Source: a virus
Taxonomy: Duplodnaviria; Heunggongvirae; Uroviricota; Caudoviricetes; Straboviridae
Virus record (IMG/VR): IMGVR_UViG_2974587864_000001
Direction: 5' to 3' (one strand)
DNA: 64,000 bases
A program made the position numbers and the translations under genes. The first letter of the stretch is position 1, and every line of letters starts with the position of its first letter. This document shows positions 24,970-57,700 of the stretch, one piece after another. Under the pieces are notes generated by a model. That model saw nothing but the letters and a program-made list of their open reading frames with translations, did no database searches and was not told the origin of the DNA.

Positions 24970-25608
24970 ATGAAACATATCATTTATAAAATAACAAACA
25001 CCATCAATAACAAAATATATGTTGGTGCTCACTCAACCGAAGATATCAACGATTCATACATGGGTTCCGGTATTGCAATCAAAAAAGCGCAAAAGAAATA
25101 TGGTATGGAACATTTCACAAAAGAAATACTTCATGTATTTGACACCCGTGAAGAAATGTATGAGAAGGAAAGGGAAATAGTTGATATTGAATTCATAAAT
25201 CGACCAGATACATATAATGCTGGTATTGGTGGTAAAGGTGCTCCAATGGCATTGATTGGATGGAGTGATGAACAACGCAAGCTGATTTCTGAAAATACTT
25301 CGAAAGCTATGCAAGCTCCAGAAATGCGCGAACGCCTTTCAAAAATCAAAACAGGAAAGAAGCAATCGGAAGAATCCAACAGGAAGCGTTCAGAGACTAT
25401 CAAAGCTATGTATAAGGGTTCTACATTCGATAGAACCGGATCTAAGATCACAGACGCACACAAGGCCAAAATAAGCCGTTCTGTATCGATAGATGGAGTT
25501 GTTTACGCAAGCGGTTCCGATGCTGCTAAAGCGTTGGGACTTTCTCGATCTGGCCTTGATTACCGTTTAAAGAGTGACAAATTTCCTGAATGGAAATTCG
25601 TTGCATAA
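24970..25608 (+). mobile_element. Seg-like GIY-YIG homing endonuclease (SegD position)
   Basis: IIYKITN...IYVGAH...YMGSG...YN GIY-YIG core, NUMOD3-like repeats, C-terminal HTH-like tail; T4 segD also lies between 23 and 24. Confidence 0.85.
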
Positions 25609-25611
25609 ATA
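25604..25611 (+). promoter_or_regulatory. Late-type promoter CATAAATA for gp24, overlapping the endonuclease stop codon
   Basis: CATAAATA contains the TAA at 25606-25608. Confidence 0.6.
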
Positions 25612-25646
25612 AACAATATACTCCCTATAATTCAGGAACCAAAGAA

Positions 25647-26945
25647 ATGAGTGATAAACACTACACAATTCACAAGTTGATGCGTCAGTCTGCGCTTCCG
25701 TCTGGTAAACGAGAAAAAGTTATCAACGAAGCAACAGGCACGACCGACATCAACGTACAGAACACGCGCCCAGAACTGGTTTCTTTGACTCGCGCGGTTA
25801 ACAACCTGATCTATCATGAACTGGTTGCTGTACAAGAAACAGAACTCCCTGTTGCAACACTGTTCGGTGTTCGCTATCGCAACCCTAACGGTGATATGAC
25901 TTTCTCCAGTGCTGCAACCTATTCAGGCCGAATCTCTGGACGTACAGACATCGACGAAATCGATCTGACTAAAGCCTACGTTAAAGGTGATTTGTTCAAG
26001 CATGACGGCACTGACGTTGTTTATGAGGTGATTGCACCTATTACCCTGAACACTCTGGATACTGACAAAGACACCGCGATCATGAAAGCTGTGTTCCAAA
26101 GCAAGATTCGCCTGGTTAGCGAAGCCGCTGACACTTCGAAATACGAAACCAGTGAAGATATCGCGTCAACCTCCTTCCAGATGGATCGCTGGAATATTCC
26201 GGTACGCTCGCGTAAGTTTAAAACCGAAATGACGGTTGAACTGATGCAGGATTTGGAAGCTAACCAGTTCGAAGCTGATGGGGTGATCGAAGACATCCTG
26301 GGAACCGTGGCAAGTGAAGAAGTCAACAAAGACATTATTCAAACACTGATCACCGTTTCCAAACGTTACAACGTCGATGGACTCGTTACGGATGGTATTT
26401 TTGACGGTACTACCGCATACACCGCGAAGGATGCTCCAGCATTGGGTCGTATCCTGTACCAATTAGCGTGTGAAATGGGGCAGGAAATGAATAGAACGAC
26501 TTCATTTGATGCTACCTATGTCCTCGCAACAGCGCGTGTTGTAGGCATTCTGGCTGCGTCTGGTTGGATGCACGAAACCGACGAACAACACCCACTGGCA
26601 ACAGGTAAGCTGAACAACGGTTATTATGTCTATACAGACACAAACAGCCCGTTCGATTATATGCTGACTGGCTGCAAATATGATCTGGGTGATATGGATC
26701 ACGTAGGCTCTCTGTTCTTCGCTCCGTATACCGAAGCTGATGAAGCAGGTTCAATCAAAGTATCCGTAGATCCGGCATCCCTGCAACCGAAAGTTGCTAT
26801 TCTGATGCGTTACGGTCTTTCCGTGAACCCATACACAGCAGAAAGCGAATCCGATCACCTGATCAAAGGTGATGATTGGTCTGCTCTTGCAGGTAAATCT
26901 AAGCTGAGTCAGATCGTAGGTATTAAGTTACCTAAACTGGGTTAA
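25647..26945 (+). CDS. 24: Capsid vertex protein gp24
   Basis: RPELVSLTRAVNNLIY, RSRKFKTEMTVELMQDLEAN and RYGLSVNPY motifs; start set at ATG 25647 (SD AGGA). Confidence 0.92.
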   Translation: MSDKHYTIHKLMRQSALPSGKREKVINEATGTTDINVQNTRPELVSLTRAVNNLIYHELVAVQETELPVATLFGVRYRNPNGDMTFSSAATYSGRISGRTDIDEIDLTKAYVKGDLFKHDGTDVVYEVIAPITLNTLDTDKDTAIMKAVFQSKIRLVSEAADTSKYETSEDIASTSFQMDRWNIPVRSRKFKTEMTVELMQDLEANQFEADGVIEDILGTVASEEVNKDIIQTLITVSKRYNVDGLVTDGIFDGTTAYTAKDAPALGRILYQLACEMGQEMNRTTSFDATYVLATARVVGILAASGWMHETDEQHPLATGKLNNGYYVYTDTNSPFDYMLTGCKYDLGDMDHVGSLFFAPYTEADEAGSIKVSVDPASLQPKVAILMRYGLSVNPYTAESESDHLIKGDDWSALAGKSKLSQIVGIKLPKLG

Positions 26946-26967
26946 CAAGTTTTGTTTTGAGAAGACC

Positions 26968-26996
26968 ATTATAGTAATAAAGATCTATAAGGTCAA
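26968..26996 (-). promoter_or_regulatory. Leftward sigma70-type promoter, antisense to gp24
   Basis: Minus strand TTGACC (26996-26991), 17 nt, TATAAT (26973-26968). Confidence 0.65.
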
Positions 26997-27159
26997 ACGA
27001 GCGAAGCGAGTTTTCACGAACGAAGTGAGTGATGGGTAAGTACGATGTACTGTTTATAATATTTATATTTTATATATAGAGAAAACAGTACATTTCCGTA
27101 TACTTTTTAACCAACATTCACTCACTACGTTCGTTCATGTACTCGCTTCGCTCGTAGAT

Positions 27160-27187
27160 TTGACTTCTTGATCTAACTGGTTATAAT
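27160..27187 (+). promoter_or_regulatory. Rightward sigma70-type promoter for uvsY
   Basis: TTGACT 27160-27165, 16 nt, TATAAT 27182-27187. Confidence 0.7.
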
Positions 27188-27210
27188 GTTACTTTGTTTT
27201 GAGGTGATAC

Positions 27211-27633
27211 ATGGCTGAACTAAAACTTGAAGATCTACAGGCTGAACTTGAAGAGGATATGCGTATTGATCCGTTGAAGTTACAAAGCGAATCAGCAGAC
27301 ATTCCGAAGATTTGGTCAAAATGGCTTCGATACCATTCGAATGCTAAGAAAAAACTTATTCAACTCCATGCGAAGAAAGAAGCGATTGTAAAAGATCGGT
27401 TACTGTTCTACACTGGTAGACACGAAAGCGAAATGACCGATGTCATTTACACTGGTTCGGGTGAAATCAAAATTGCTATCTCCGGTGATCCTAAGACCGT
27501 TGAAGTTAACAAGCTGATCCAATACTTCGAACTGATTGCAGAGTTTACCGGAAAAGCGCTGGATATCGTTAAGAACAAAGGCTACTCCATCAAAAACATG
27601 TTGGAGATCCGTAAACTTGAGAGTGGTGCATAA
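27211..27633 (+). CDS. uvsY: Recombination mediator UvsY
   Basis: LQAELEEDMRID, WSKWLRYHS, DRLLFYTG and KGYSIKNMLEIRKLESGA motifs. Confidence 0.92.
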   Translation: MAELKLEDLQAELEEDMRIDPLKLQSESADIPKIWSKWLRYHSNAKKKLIQLHAKKEAIVKDRLLFYTGRHESEMTDVIYTGSGEIKIAISGDPKTVEVNKLIQYFELIAEFTGKALDIVKNKGYSIKNMLEIRKLESGA

Positions 27634-52944: not shown

Positions 52945-53283
52945 ATGAGCCGTGAAATTTTACTCCCTGCTGCAAATGCTGTTCATGCTGAAACAATGGA
53001 ATACATGGAGAAATTCGTTGAACGCGATAACACCGCGATCATCACTCCTACTCACCTGGACGCGCTCGAAGATCGTCTTCATAAGCAGATTAAAGATCAA
53101 TTCCCTGAAAAGGTTAGCCGCAACTTCATTCGTCAGGAAATCGTTGCAATGATGCTGAAACATTACGGCGTTGAAATCTTCGGTGTCGAACCACTGAAAC
53201 CGAAGAAACCGCGTCAAATGCCTAAACAGATTACCGACGAAGCAATCAAGAAATACCAGAAGAAATACGCTAAGAATAAATGA
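52945..53283 (+). CDS. Hypothetical protein
   Basis: 112 aa with a basic C-terminus; abuts nrdH. Confidence 0.65.
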   Translation: MSREILLPAANAVHAETMEYMEKFVERDNTAIITPTHLDALEDRLHKQIKDQFPEKVSRNFIRQEIVAMMLKHYGVEIFGVEPLKPKKPRQMPKQITDEAIKKYQKKYAKNK

Positions 53284-54707
53284 TCTTTAATACGATTGAA
53301 TGTGTTCCGTCAAGTGGTAAAACAAAGGCGATTCTGAACCATATCAATCAAACGGGCGAAAAAGCAATCATCGCATCGATTTCCATGATGTTATCAAAAC
53401 AGTCTTATGACTACTACATCAACCAGGTAAAAGGGAAACGAGCGGTGATTGTGGACACGGATCACCGAACCAAAAGAACCAATAACGATGCGCTGCGTGA
53501 AGTAGTCAATGATTACGATGTGATTTTCATCACTCATGCAGCACTGAAAAACATTGATGACTTTGATTTGTATAAGGATTTTTCCCTGTATATTGACGAA
53601 GTTCCTGATTTGGTTGCGTTCGAAAGTCTGCGATTTAATAGCAATATCAAGCACATACGCGAGATTTGCTTGCCGTTTAGTTGCAATGCCGATGATATCG
53701 TTGATTTAAAACTTGACGAAGAAAAACGAGAACTGGTTACACGATTAGCCTATGATGGTCTTCGTAAACGTGATGATATCGCAATGAAGATGTTCCCGCT
53801 TTACCGTGCTCTGTTAGGGGCTATTCCGGTGAAGATGCAATGTAGCGATTCGGGATATGTCTGTTACTTCGTAGAGGATCATGACGTAAGCCAGTGGAAG
53901 TTCAAAAATGTAACCATTGCTTCATCCAACATCAAAGACACAATTACAGGGAAGATCCTGCAAACGTTTCATGATGTGGAGTTCAAAGATTCACCGCTTC
54001 AAAAGCTGGTTGACTTTAAGCAATACAAAAACACTGGGCGCATACATATACATGTGCTCGCAGAGGGGGATTATTCGCGTTATACGGGCGATCTCTCTCA
54101 ATCTGGGACGACAGTATACACCCAGATTAAAAAACGCGTGGAGGCGCTTCTAGGGGGCGAACAGTTCATCTACTGCACCAACACGTATCGATCGAAGTTT
54201 AGCGAGGGGCAAGAAATTCCGTATAACTCGCACGGATTGAACTTCTATTCGAGCTATACTAACGTGGTAGCATTATTCAGTTACAACCCGTTACCCTGGC
54301 TTCGTCAAATGTTGCGAGCGGTTGCGGTGTCCTCTGGACTCGAAGAGGAAGAATTAGTTGATGCTTATGTTGTCAGTAAATATTACGAACCAGCCTTTCA
54401 GTTATGCGCTCGTTCTGATATCCGACACAACAACAGCAAACGAAAGATTAATTTATTTGTGCCTGATATGCGGTTAGCGAAATACATGAAGGAAAAATAT
54501 TTTCCTGATGCCATTATCGAAACCACAGAAGCAGTTCAAACGAAAAGGCAACGCAAATCATTTCAAACCCTTTTCCAAATGACGGACAAAGAGAAAAACG
54601 CTTTTACGCCATACAAGAAAAGAAACAAATTAGATTATGCGAATCCTCTTCATCACGCGATTGTTAAAGATTGGCTGAACAATTACCGTGAGAAAAAGGC
54701 GACTTGA
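53280..54707 (+). CDS. SF2-like helicase/ATPase not belonging to the T4 core
   Basis: VPSSGKT motif I, IIAS Ia, FITH Ib, YIDEV II, HGLNFY V, FQLCARSDIR VI; basic C-terminal tail. Confidence 0.7.
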   Translation: MIFNTIECVPSSGKTKAILNHINQTGEKAIIASISMMLSKQSYDYYINQVKGKRAVIVDTDHRTKRTNNDALREVVNDYDVIFITHAALKNIDDFDLYKDFSLYIDEVPDLVAFESLRFNSNIKHIREICLPFSCNADDIVDLKLDEEKRELVTRLAYDGLRKRDDIAMKMFPLYRALLGAIPVKMQCSDSGYVCYFVEDHDVSQWKFKNVTIASSNIKDTITGKILQTFHDVEFKDSPLQKLVDFKQYKNTGRIHIHVLAEGDYSRYTGDLSQSGTTVYTQIKKRVEALLGGEQFIYCTNTYRSKFSEGQEIPYNSHGLNFYSSYTNVVALFSYNPLPWLRQMLRAVAVSSGLEEEELVDAYVVSKYYEPAFQLCARSDIRHNNSKRKINLFVPDMRLAKYMKEKYFPDAIIETTEAVQTKRQRKSFQTLFQMTDKEKNAFTPYKKRNKLDYANPLHHAIVKDWLNNYREKKAT

Positions 54708-54763: not shown

Positions 54764-57700
54764 ATGGTAGCTAAATCATTCCGCGCCACAAGTGGCCTTG
54801 ATGCTGCTGGCGAAAAAGTTATCAACGTTGGTAAAGCATCCCGCTCTGTGTTGAGCGACGGCGTGAACGTTGACTTTTTTAACGAATTTAACACGATCCA
54901 ACAATACGATTCTACCCGTGGCTATGCTGCGTTTATGGCTATCATGTACGCGCGTCGTATTTGGTACGCTCGCGCAGATATTCCATCACCAGCGGGTGCT
55001 TTCGATGAAACAAAATGGATCTCAACCCGTAACGATCCAAAATGGGTATATAACAACGTAACGAGCACTGACGGTCTCCCTGTTGAATCCGGTACGTACT
55101 TACTGGCTGATGGTCGTTTCTCTGAACTGACATATATTCTACCAGATTCCCCTGTTGAGGGTGATATTATCACCATTAAAGACGGTGGCGGTCTTGCAGG
55201 TCTCAACAACCTTTTGGTTCGTTCAAACACCCGACAGATCCGTTTGCGTGATATTCAGTCAAGCTCTTATCGACTGACTCACCCATACATGACCGTAGCG
55301 TTTATCTTTAACGGTAACTTATGGCGTGTTTCTGAAATGCGCGATAACCGCGATTCGCAGTTTGTGAACGCAACAGGTGCGGGTTCTTTCCAACTGCAAG
55401 CGGGTATGGTAACATTCCGTAATAGCGGTACAGGCAAGATTACTCTGCAATTGCCTAGATACGCAAACGATGGTGACTCAATCACAACTTACGATCTGGA
55501 TCGCCTTGCTTCGGTGAACGTTGCGACTCTGCAAGTTTATCCTGGTAGCGGACACACGATCAGCTATGACGGTATCAACAACGTAACTTCTGTGACTTCA
55601 CAGCGTTCCGGTTATGGTATCTTCATGTTCGATCAGGCTAATAGCCGCTGGGTCGTTTATGATGGTGATCAGCGCGTTCGTCTGCGTCGTATCAGTGATG
55701 ACCTGAACATGTTGCCGAACGATTACGTGTTTATCACCCCGATCGCTGGTAGTCCTCCAACTGTGCGTAACGTAACGCTGACTCTTCCGCAAGATGTTGC
55801 CGAAGGTGATCGCGTGTATATCAGTATGTATATGATGGGGAAAACGCAGAACTGCACAATCAAAGTTAAAGATGATTCCGGTGAAAAGATCCGCACCAAC
55901 AAAAACATGATGCAGTTCCCACAGCGTAAGGATTATCCACCTGATGACTGGTTCAGTGTTGACACTCTGACTTTCAACGCCGATACTGACTATCTTCCAT
56001 ATATAGAATTGTCGTATCTGAAAGCTACGAAAGAATGGGTAGTTGCACAATATCGCCCGATCATTGAACGTGTTGATCCAACAAACCGTTCTCGTCTGGG
56101 TGTGATCGCGCTGGCTACACAGGCAGAAGTAAACAAAAACTGGGAAGATACACCGTCTGATGAACTGGCAGTAACCCCGCGCACACTGGCGAATAAAACC
56201 GCTACTGAAACGCGTCGTGGTATTGCTCGACTGGCTACCACTGCGGAAGTGAACCAGAACACAACGGCTACTTTTTTGGATGACGTAATCGTAACACCTA
56301 AAAAGTTTAACGAACGTACAGCAACAGAAGATCGCCGTGGTGTGTTGGAAATCGCTACCCAGACTGAAACGAATGCTGGTACTGATGACACTACCGCAAT
56401 CACGCCTAAGAAGCTCGACACGCGCCGCGCGACCGAAACCCTAGCAGGTATCGGGAAACTCGTTACAACGGGCGCTACGACAGCGGAGGGGGCTTTACGT
56501 GGGGATGCTGGTACTAACGTCTACAACTTCAATAACGGTGTTGACTTACTGACTCCGAAATCATTGAACGAGAAGACGGCGACCGAAAAGTCAAAAGGTC
56601 TGGTTGTTCTGGCGACCGAAAACGAAGTGGTAACTGGTGCTGCTGCTGGATCTGCTTCAATGCCGATCGTAGTAACTCCTGAAATGCTCCATCGTAAAAC
56701 GTCTACTGAATCACGAATCGGTTTGATTGAAATCGCTACCCAGACAGAAACGAATACTGGAACCGATGATCTCCGTGCGGTAACGCCTAAGAAACTGAAC
56801 GATCGCAAGGCTACTGAATCGCTTGATGGTATTATTGCCCTCGCTACTACTGCGGAAGTTGCAGCAGGTACAGTGACGAACAAGGCAGTTGTTCCGGTTA
56901 AGCTGAAAGAGTTCTTCGACGTTACGGGTCATGTTGCTGTTGCTGCTGCGGACGGGTTAACCCAATCCGGTACTATCTGGACAACGGTTAATTTGGGGAT
57001 TGTTTCTGCTACCGAAACGCAACGTGGTACTTTACGCGTAGCGACTCAGGGCGAAACTGATGCGGGTACGCGTGATGATGTGATTATCACTGCGAAGAAA
57101 CTGCAAGCGAAAAAGGCAACTGATACAGCAGAAGGTATCATTCGTTGTGCGACTAATGCGGAAGCTGGCGCGGGTACTGCTACTAACCTGGCAATTACTC
57201 CGGCTACAATGCAGTTCCTTAACGGTACTGATCCGGCATGGGGCGCAACCACTACCCGACGCGGTGCGGTGTTTATCACAACCAAATCAAACACCTTTAT
57301 CGGTGATAACCTGGTTGGTTCTACTCAGGCAGTAGATAGCTATCTGGAAGATTTCTACGCTGTATCGCCTCGCGGTCTGAACTTTGCTCTGCAAAACTTC
57401 TTACCGAAAATGGCAACAGCACAGAATAGCTTGAGTCTGGGTGGTGTGGTTGCTGCAAGCTGGATGCGTCGTGATGCTGATCAGACCGTGACTGGTAACA
57501 ACACCTTTAACGGTACGAGCAACTTCGTAGGCAACGTAACCACTAACGGCACACTGACGGCGAACGCTGCTGTTGCAGTTAATGCGGTGATGACCTCAAA
57601 CAATAACATCAACCAGTCTGCGAAAGCAAACACGGTTTATGCCAATACTGTTTTGAGCACTGCTGCTGCTGGAACCAAAAACCTGCTTCGTACTTTCCGT

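Follow-up and report, generated by a model that had tools for sequence, protein, structure and literature searches.

In the 64,000-nucleotide stretch of DNA analysed here (the window; IMG/VR record IMGVR_UViG_2974587864_000001, Straboviridae), the spacer between gp24 and uvsY contains an imperfect palindrome that, judged by its comparison across relatives, is on balance probably one of three replication-origin modules of the RB43/Karamvirus-type T4-like phages, which would do without MotA-dependent R-loop origins. An earlier note, made from the letters of the window, had described it as a mirror-symmetric bidirectional origin with four initiator-binding iterons, an A/T core and two outward sigma70 promoters. 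That this is a conserved, selected cis element with an origin-like layout was borne out by the comparison; the alignment across relatives that the note had proposed showed a conserved element with covarying stems, but its repeats behave as hairpins and not as iterons.

Three copies at fixed sites

Over the 801-bp context of the element, Karamvirus-type T4-like phages, among them Cronobacter GAP161, Citrobacter Margaery and Enterobacter EC-F2, show 99.9% identity, and the spacer alone is about 83-84% identical to those of RB43 and RB16. The central ~110 bp of the element recur twice in G002, the nearest complete genome (178.8 kb), at 122.48 kb (90%; copy 2) and at 51.25 kb (83%; copy 3), and all three copies share an identical block of 46 nt. 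Three copies each are likewise present in RB43, RB16, Miller, Yersinia phage JC221, Pantoea phage Phynn and Morganella phage Mm5; in G002 and the first five of these phages they always occupy the same sites, namely gp24|uvsY, the junction between gene 3 and an orphan gene beside gene 2, and rnh|gene 55, the last of which was also confirmed for Mm5. Copies within a genome are more alike than orthologous copies across genera, which suggests concerted evolution. In addition, 36 phages show 99.2-100% identity over the 265-bp spacer against 96.8-99.9% over the 801-bp context (in ENT3, 99.6% for the spacer and 96.8% for the context), and substitution in the spacer is about ten times below that of the adjacent coding DNA. 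As read from these identities, the spacer is under purifying selection.

Copies 2 and 3 lie between divergently transcribed genes, and the left neighbour of the uvsY copy is co-oriented with uvsY. At the arm ends of this copy the earlier note had placed two mirror promoters, and a motif search found them both: TTGACC-17-TATAAT on the minus strand (26968..26996, read from 26996 to 26968) and the uvsY promoter TTGACT-16-TATAAT on the plus strand (27160..27187), each scoring 11/12. They are the sole TTGACY-N15-18-TATAAT matches in the window, where 0.08 would be expected. The leftward promoter fires antisense into gp24, where there is indeed no plausible open reading frame (ORF). Karamvirus, RB43, RB16, Miller, JC221 and Phynn all retain this orphan consensus promoter, the last two with the same consensus and a changed spacer sequence, and the conservation of a leftward promoter that serves no ORF would fit a need for divergent transcription across the unit, as had been proposed. 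However, the distance between unit and promoter, and hence between hairpins and promoter, varies between copies, so the promoters lie outside the repeated unit. Mirror symmetry is likewise a property of the uvsY copy, the only one with its left arm mirrored on the right; the right arm of copies 2 and 3 differs, its inner hairpin being of another type, with a CCGTC...GACGG stem around a GCGAAGC cap.

Strand-specific mini-hairpins

Four copies of ACGA(G/A)CG(A/T)AG(C/T)GAGT start at 26997 and 27016 on the plus strand and at 27120 and 27141 on the minus strand, just as first reported, and they are the sole exact matches in the window; with up to two mismatches there are 5 matches, a number reached in 0 of 100 shuffles. 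They are paired across the core, 26997-27011 with 27141-27155 (100% complementary) and 27016-27032 with 27118-27134 (94%), and GCGAAGC is present in both outer repeats, as had also been seen. These repeats are 15-17-nt DNA hairpins of the form NN-GA-NC-[GNA]-GN'-GA-N'N'. In the uvsY copy the left outer mini-hairpin is AC-GA-GC-[GAA]-GC-GA-GT (26997..27011, plus strand), followed by TTTT in uvsY copies only, and the left inner one is CAC-GA-AC-[GAA]-GT-GA-GTG (27015..27031, plus strand), which in Phynn has CC-[GAA]-GG at a covarying pair. The right inner (27118..27134) and right outer (27141..27155) mini-hairpins have their GNA-loop sense on the minus strand.

The anatomy of the element was derived from a comparison of 21 elements, which together hold 84 NCGNAGN' motifs: 42 on the plus strand left of the core, 39 on the minus strand right of it, and 3 exceptions. 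The closing pair is C-G in all 44 distinct hairpin sequences, and pair 2 is G-C, A-T or C-G. Pairs 3-4 form a tandem G·A/A·G mismatch in 30-32 cases and two Watson-Crick pairs in 9-12. Watson-Crick pairing holds for pair 5 in 38/44, where four pair types occur, and for pair 6 in 31/44. When the partner was slid by 1 or 2 positions as a control, at most 18/44 paired, one trivial register aside. Entire stems have even been swapped with the GNA loop kept, as in CCGACC-GAA-GGTCGG (JC221) and TCGGC-GAA-GCCGA (Phynn). The covarying stems, the non-complementary tandem GA/GA and the strand rule, followed by 81 of the 84 motifs, argue for GNA mini-hairpins that act as single strands and against the double-strand initiator iterons of the earlier note. 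On each side the hairpin-forming strand has its 3' end towards the core, so by geometry it would be the template for outward synthesis. GCGNAGC is an extraordinarily stable DNA mini-hairpin that occurs at the G4 primase site, in RSF1010 ssiA (as CCGAAGG) and in the N4 hairpin promoters (PMC13037366). The case for mini-hairpins here is built on covariation and on this published behaviour.

The A/T core and its clade-specific boxes

The inner stem is present as described, with 11 perfect base pairs (27045-27055 with 27083-27093), and the inner hairpin, folded as single-stranded DNA, reaches -10.5 kcal/mol (z = -3.9), which none of 200 shuffles equalled. The pure A/T run of 26 nt is there too (27053-27078), but it is not wholly enclosed by the stem as had been claimed, 3 nt being shared with it; the loop proper (27056-27082) has two G within. 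The A/T core as a whole spans 27053..27085, with no strand assigned, and contains a near-invariant block, TATATTTTATATATAGAGAAAA (27064-27085), that is kept across clades and reads TATAT(T/A)TTATATATAGAGAAAA, nearly invariant, over the 21 elements. The three cores of G002 are three of the four most A/T-rich 40-mers in its 179-kb genome. The core also has a T4-type late promoter, TATAAATA, on its minus strand (27068..27061), which was dropped because neither RB43 nor RB16 keeps it.

The core is bordered by clade-specific boxes. In the window, two direct GTAC-containing repeats (AAGTACG and ATGTACTG; 27038..27055, plus strand) stand on the left, the second being the left arm of the inner stem, and on the right the inner-stem right arm AAACAGTACAT is followed, after a T-tract, by a second box, GTATAC (27083..27103, plus strand). 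The left and right arms are ATGTACTG and CAGTACAT in Karamvirus, AACTACAT and ATGTAGTT in Pseudotevenvirus, which has AACTACA in place of the Karamvirus boxes, ATGTCCAC and GTGGACAT in Phynn, and GTACCCT and AGGGTAC in Mm5. The inner inverted repeat switches with the clade in all three copies together, and the left box is usually doubled as a direct repeat with a spacing of 6-11 nt. A plain hairpin would not need this doubling, which a recognition site might. Because the inner repeat changes with the clade, it is likelier than the mini-hairpins to be a protein recognition site, and the boxes are thus likelier candidates for protein recognition than the four supposed iterons. These boxes, two direct and one inverted, could themselves be double-strand initiator sites of the iteron type.

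A helicase as candidate partner

A phyletic screen of 270 G002 ORFs against six genomes returned exactly one ORF that RB43, JC221, Phynn and Mm5 have and that Slopekvirus Matisse and T4 lack. It encodes a 475-aa protein (53280..54707 in the window, plus strand), and no nuclease co-occurred with the element in this screen. Since Matisse is closer to this phage than Mm5 is, the joint absence of helicase and element is nested within the group. In all, 59 phage records have the helicase at 60% identity or more, and 61 have the Karamvirus-type element. Pfam and PDB sequence searches gave no match for the 475-aa protein, which belongs to phrog_2467 (function unknown) and has a Walker A motif, PSSGKT, and a DE box; the best fold match of its AlphaFold model (pLDDT 87.5) is to XPD/DinG-type SF2 helicases (E 5e-10, TM about 0.5). 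A helical tail rich in Lys/Arg makes up its last ~75 residues and is less conserved than the rest of the protein in every pairwise comparison. With respect to RB43, 11 of the 27 substitutions fall in C-terminal residues 415-462, and the inner boxes also differ between these two phages; such a divergent tail alongside differing boxes is suggestive only. The gene lies just before gp34 in this phage and directly upstream of gene 55 in Proteus and Aeromonas phages. Its phyletic co-occurrence with the element lends support to the 475-aa helicase as the trans-acting partner and makes it the leading candidate initiator. A 261-aa orphan protein beside copy 2 (P0001), which has no Pfam match, was also considered as initiator and rejected, as it is 81% identical in Matisse, which lacks the element.

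Comparison with the T4 origins

To our knowledge, T4 is the only T4-type phage whose origins have been defined experimentally. In the T4 RefSeq record, from which the origin coordinates were taken, oriF lies at the start of uvsY ("primer RNA is same as transcript for gene uvsY"), oriE within gene 5, at a distance of 3.4 kb from the gene 3|2 junction, and oriG within gene 34, with the start of rnh 2.2 kb away. Kreuzer and Brister describe oriE, oriF and oriG as lying at transcription strand switches and nucleotide-skew shifts, oriF and oriG as a MotA promoter with a downstream unwinding element, and the T4 origins as sharing no motif (PMC3016281). The element resembles oriF and oriG in that one copy stands immediately upstream of uvsY, in the place of oriF, in that several putative origins lie at transcriptional divergence, and in that each copy adjoins a promoter and has an A/T-rich unwinding element. 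In this regard, copies 3 and 2 of G002 coincide with both cumulative GC-skew minima (~52 and ~124 kb) and with both major strand switches; the skew check suggested by the earlier note therefore does find minima at these copies, although skew follows gene orientation and is not independent of it. Copy 2 is also within 3.4 kb of the syntenic position of oriE, which with RepEA/RepEB has repeats and an early, not a middle, promoter; the oriE iterons have no sequence or structural likeness to the element.

The differences from T4 are equally marked. MotA_activ and AsiA gave no match in G002 or RB43, with T4 as the positive control, and RB43 has likewise been reported to lack MotA/AsiA by Nolan et al. 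(PMC1524935). The absence of MotA and AsiA excludes a T4-style middle-promoter origin. Furthermore, the spacer has no TGCTT (MotA) box, the A/T core at 27053-27085 lies upstream of, and between, the two outward promoters, and the DNA downstream of the uvsY promoter is not A/T-rich, so that the contrast with oriF drawn in the earlier note holds. Whereas the T4 origins share no sequence with one another, the copies here are near-identical, and T4, like Matisse, has 0 matches to the hairpin motif. As a separate observation, self-comparison of another T4 record (OZ035787) showed a repeat of ~100 bp at 79312-79411 that matches the RefSeq oriE coordinate, 79355, and has an 84% identical copy at 143371-143470 and further members elsewhere; the two T4 records are possibly numbered differently.

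Elements of other phage groups and bacterial copies

Matisse (NC_028750), without helicase and element, has ~200 bp at 83-91% A/T at the same three loci (31.85-32.0, 103.5-103.75 and 137.99-138.22 kb), which are mutually related and are the three most A/T-rich 150-bp segments of its genome; the rnh|55 and gene 3 members are also its two most GATC-dense 200-bp segments. These repeats suggest that the three loci are special in both groups and that the type of cassette changes with the helicase. Aeromonas phage 25 and Proteus phage PM2 each encode the helicase, at 46-47% identity. Aeromonas phage 25 (NC_008208) has six copies of a different element built to the same plan, with two GC hairpins, TTATCCTTT..A/T..AAAGGATAA and two more GC hairpins, at 2847, 30347, 70308, 88153, 109950 and 141095; its copies lie at helicase|55, gp25|uvsY, gene 3|2, 35|36, 12|13 and near rIIA. 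PM2 (NC_055727) has its own hairpin-flanked A/T-rich repeat at helicase|55, gp25|uvsY, gene 3|2 and 35|36 (25383-25587, 54883-55072, 99084-99277 and 137881-138000), with a tandem duplication at three of the four, and an AGGAGC-GAA-GCTCCT mini-hairpin comes after its gene 55 copy. Three groups thus have an element at gene 3|2, next to gene 55 and upstream of uvsY, and from group to group these elements share a few short motifs at most. RB49 has no sequence match to the PM2 element, and no search for an element of its own was made.

Copies were also found in bacteria. A scan of species-representative genomes detected a complete Karamvirus-type unit on a 2.29-Mb contig of Enterobacter quasiroggenkampii (NZ_LFDQ02000001; L136, 1955-2125), as well as a 178-kb contig with three copies that looks like phage DNA within the assembly, and further matches on short contigs of metagenome-assembled genomes. 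The Enterobacter unit runs exactly from the left outer hairpin, CCTCGC-GAA-GCGAGG with a compensated stem, to the right outer hairpin, without the phage promoter. Its neighbours encode an ABC-3C CTD9 protein, a 471-aa HNH protein (HNH_2) and a resolvase, and the 102-aa ORF upstream and the 389-aa ORF downstream of the unit have no Pfam match. A second Enterobacteriaceae genome (G319; L141) has the unit at 95% identity beside an IS3-like ORF, making 2 of the 401 genomes sampled. The two loci are homologous exactly as far as the right outer hairpin, after which they carry different cargo. The phage helicase as query had no match in either bacterial genome. The capture of the bare unit, with no helicase found, suggests that it is self-contained and transferable, and that a bacterial copy would need a factor supplied by the phage.

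Proposed mechanism and relation to known systems

A working model can be drawn from these features. Early transcription by the host RNA polymerase from the divergent flanking promoters would leave the DNA between them underwound, and at uvsY a dedicated orphan promoter would add to this. The A/T core could then melt, aided by the phage XPD/DinG-like SF2 helicase, which would recognise the clade-specific boxes. As the bubble spreads, the strand with its 3' end towards the core would fold two GNA mini-hairpins per side, and these would resist re-annealing as well as single-stranded-DNA-binding protein. The hairpins may in this way keep the origin open and mark a primosome or primer start for outward synthesis on each side.

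The layout has partial counterparts in several known systems. The oriV of RSF1010/R1162 similarly combines an A/T-rich region with short, inverted hairpins on opposite strands that are placed for outward synthesis of each strand. This opposite-strand layout of RSF1010-type single-strand-initiation (ssi) hairpins is found here in 81 of 84 motifs, with a putative priming function. Unlike RSF1010, the element has its A/T core between hairpins, two per side, most of them with tandem G.A in the stem. RSF1010 itself has iterons in direct repeat for RepC, as well as a dedicated primase, RepB'. No such direct-repeat iterons were seen in the element, and the one co-occurring gene found encodes a helicase. 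The CCGAAGG heptamer of RSF1010 ssiA (PMC13037366) also occurs in Phynn and JC221. With origins of the R6K/RK2/lambda-like iteron type the element has in common an adjacent A/T-rich unwinding element, here with a 26-nt pure A/T run, but its four repeats are inverted across the core and show compensating stem changes. The complementary-strand origins of G4, St-1 and alpha3 and the promoters of the N4 virion RNA polymerase (RNAP) use mini-hairpins of the GCGNAGC/GCGNNAGC type on a defined strand as protein landing sites that exclude single-strand-binding protein; they serve, however, single-stranded phage DNA or the giant N4 RNAP, whereas here the hairpins are embedded in duplex DNA and melting would be required.

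Herpes simplex oriS with UL9, an SF2 origin-binding helicase, also shows a palindrome, an A/T centre and inverted boxes, and the protein proposed as partner here is likewise an SF2 helicase, whose helical C-terminal tail is separate; on the other hand, its best fold matches are to XPD/DinG, no homology to UL9 was shown, and oriS lacks flanking arrays of mini-hairpins. Lastly, the promoter-early-stem-loop (PeSL) cassettes of RB49 and phi1 are short repeated non-coding modules of a hairpin and an early promoter, and the right end of the rnh copy has the look of such a terminator-promoter unit. PeSLs are said by Arbiol et al. to occur in dozens of copies before small early genes and to mediate shuffling. 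The element differs from them in its three fixed copies, its promoter outside the unit (the bacterial copies have none) and its A/T core with four strand-specific hairpins.

More tentatively, the scheme may extend to non-T-even T4-like phages at large (RB43/Karamvirus, Morganella, Proteus, Aeromonas and perhaps RB49), which would have 3-6 near-identical origins, an XPD/DinG-like helicase that opens them through clade-specific boxes, and GNA hairpins as ssi signals; enterobacterial islands would carry a bare copy that an infecting phage amplifies or triggers. We regard this wider proposal as possible, with less confidence than the reading of the palindrome itself. The element provides a defined unit of 160 bp, a named candidate initiator gene, and predictions for plasmid and marker-frequency assays. 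If the reading is true, this would be a natural case of a duplex genome that makes use of arrays of ultra-stable GCGNAGC mini-hairpins maintained through compensating changes. The bacterial copies suggest hijacking of a phage origin or a phage-sensing decoy, which bears on the biology of phage defence and on how therapeutic phages of Enterobacter, Klebsiella and Cronobacter are chosen and engineered.

Evidence against an origin and alternative explanations

Several points weigh against the interpretation as an origin, the evidence for which is entirely comparative. The skew minima coincide with the transcription switch and so do not count independently of gene orientation, and two of the three positional matches to T4 origins hold only to within 2-3.4 kb. 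Aeromonas phages of the 44RR type have MotA and yet keep helicase and elements, so the system is not simply a substitute for MotA. The link to the helicase consists of one clade-level loss (Slopekvirus) and two further groups, and a fast-evolving C-terminal tail is not specific evidence for recognition of the boxes. Nearest-neighbour DNA folding gives the arms with the mini-hairpins no excess stability (z about 0); conventional models cannot explain the stability of these mini-hairpins (PMC13037366), which makes this result uninformative and not contrary. In addition, the right outer hairpin of the rnh|55 copy (G002; L003, 1640-1665), AGCGC-TTC-GCGCT, has a perfect GC stem and is followed by a T-run on the plus strand, GATTTTATT; this arrangement right of the core is conserved in RB43, JC221 and Phynn and suggests a terminator for a rightward transcript leaving the core, to which no promoter could be assigned. 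The public runs that hold the stretch are from wastewater or unlabelled, with none recorded as RNA and no infected-cell run found for either RNA or DNA, and Logan contigs cannot reveal transcript ends. A limited, non-exhaustive search of the literature, including genome papers on T4 relatives, returned no description of the element.

Transcription might also account for the element in a different way, if its boxes and hairpins bound a factor that times or insulates the divergent early promoters, as a late shut-off or a phage-inducible switch, with no start of replication. All three copies do lie between or beside strong sigma70-type promoters, terminator-like T-runs follow an outer hairpin in two of them, the left one at uvsY and the right one at rnh|55, and the bacterial copies stand upstream of cargo that varies, in islands that also hold ABC-3C, HNH and resolvase genes, a setting in which a switch triggered by phage would be sensible. 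We nevertheless consider such a control region fairly unlikely, since the distance from unit to promoter varies and the bacterial units are promoterless, the analogous elements of Aeromonas phage 25 and PM2 are found inside late-gene clusters (3|2, 35|36, 12|13), the partner gene encodes a helicase and no regulator fold, and a strand-specific hairpin rule is unexpected for double-strand operators. That the DNA acts through its structure is also unlikely in our view, be it as a recombination hot spot or cruciform that seeds recombination-dependent replication, as a clamp-loading or nicking site for late transcription, or as a topoisomerase or condensation site. The long imperfect palindrome with its extrudable inner hairpin, its position in or beside late-gene regions, and the action of XPD/DinG-type helicases in repair are in line with this, as is the first discovery of the T4 origins as recombination hot spots (cited in PMC3016281). 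However, the uvsY copy alone forms a full palindrome and copies 2 and 3 cannot extrude one large cruciform, the A/T core with strand-symmetric hairpins suits the opening of a bubble better than cutting, and the phyletic screen linked no nuclease to the element.

A role in RNA, either through a small RNA transcribed from the core or through hairpins that function in read-through or antisense transcripts of gp24, would explain the TATAAT-like hexamers in the core, the terminator-like hairpin and T-run after the core at the rnh copy, and the G.T wobbles that the JC221 inner stem keeps on the plus strand. It appears improbable because the GNA-loop sense is on opposite strands either side of the core, so that the four hairpins are never all in that sense on one transcript, copies 2 and 3 have no known promoter directed inward, and no -35 hexamer or conserved activator box precedes the -10-like hexamers of the core. 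Moreover, a GNA triloop with sheared G.A is a DNA mini-hairpin motif, and the best match in Rfam 15 is MIR821 with 34.6 bits against the 249 required, all sub-threshold matches being to generic long hairpins or miRNA hairpins. Lastly, several copies per genome, their occurrence in bacterial chromosomes and a direct repeat of 11 nt that brackets the uvsY palindrome like a target-site duplication recall a selfish palindromic repeat of the kind of miniature inverted-repeat transposable elements (MITEs), functionless for the phage. This seems very improbable to us, as the same three sites are occupied across deeply diverged genera, spacer substitution is ~10x below that of adjacent coding DNA, copies within a genome share their clade-specific boxes, and stems show compensatory changes.

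Neighbouring features

The gene for gp24, the capsid vertex protein (25590..26945, plus strand), and uvsY (27211..27633, plus strand) were assigned from the ORF list and the annotation of relatives. The gp24 gene ends just left of the element, into which late gp24 transcripts read. A repeat search found TTTGTTTTGAG, an exact 11-nt direct repeat, at 26951..26961 (plus strand) and at 27193-27203, the latter in the uvsY leader just before the Shine-Dalgarno sequence; the pair encloses the entire palindrome including both promoters and is kept in RB43, RB16 and Miller. It resembles a target-site duplication or a duplicated leader, and its reading as the mark of a MITE is unsupported by the distribution of the copies.

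Upstream of these features, a 212-aa ORF (24970-25608) between gp23 and gp24 has an insertion-like distribution. At this position T4 has a homing endonuclease gene. With tblastn the ORF has no match in RB43, JC221, Phynn or Mm5, and matches were found in Matisse (66%) and T4 (41%).

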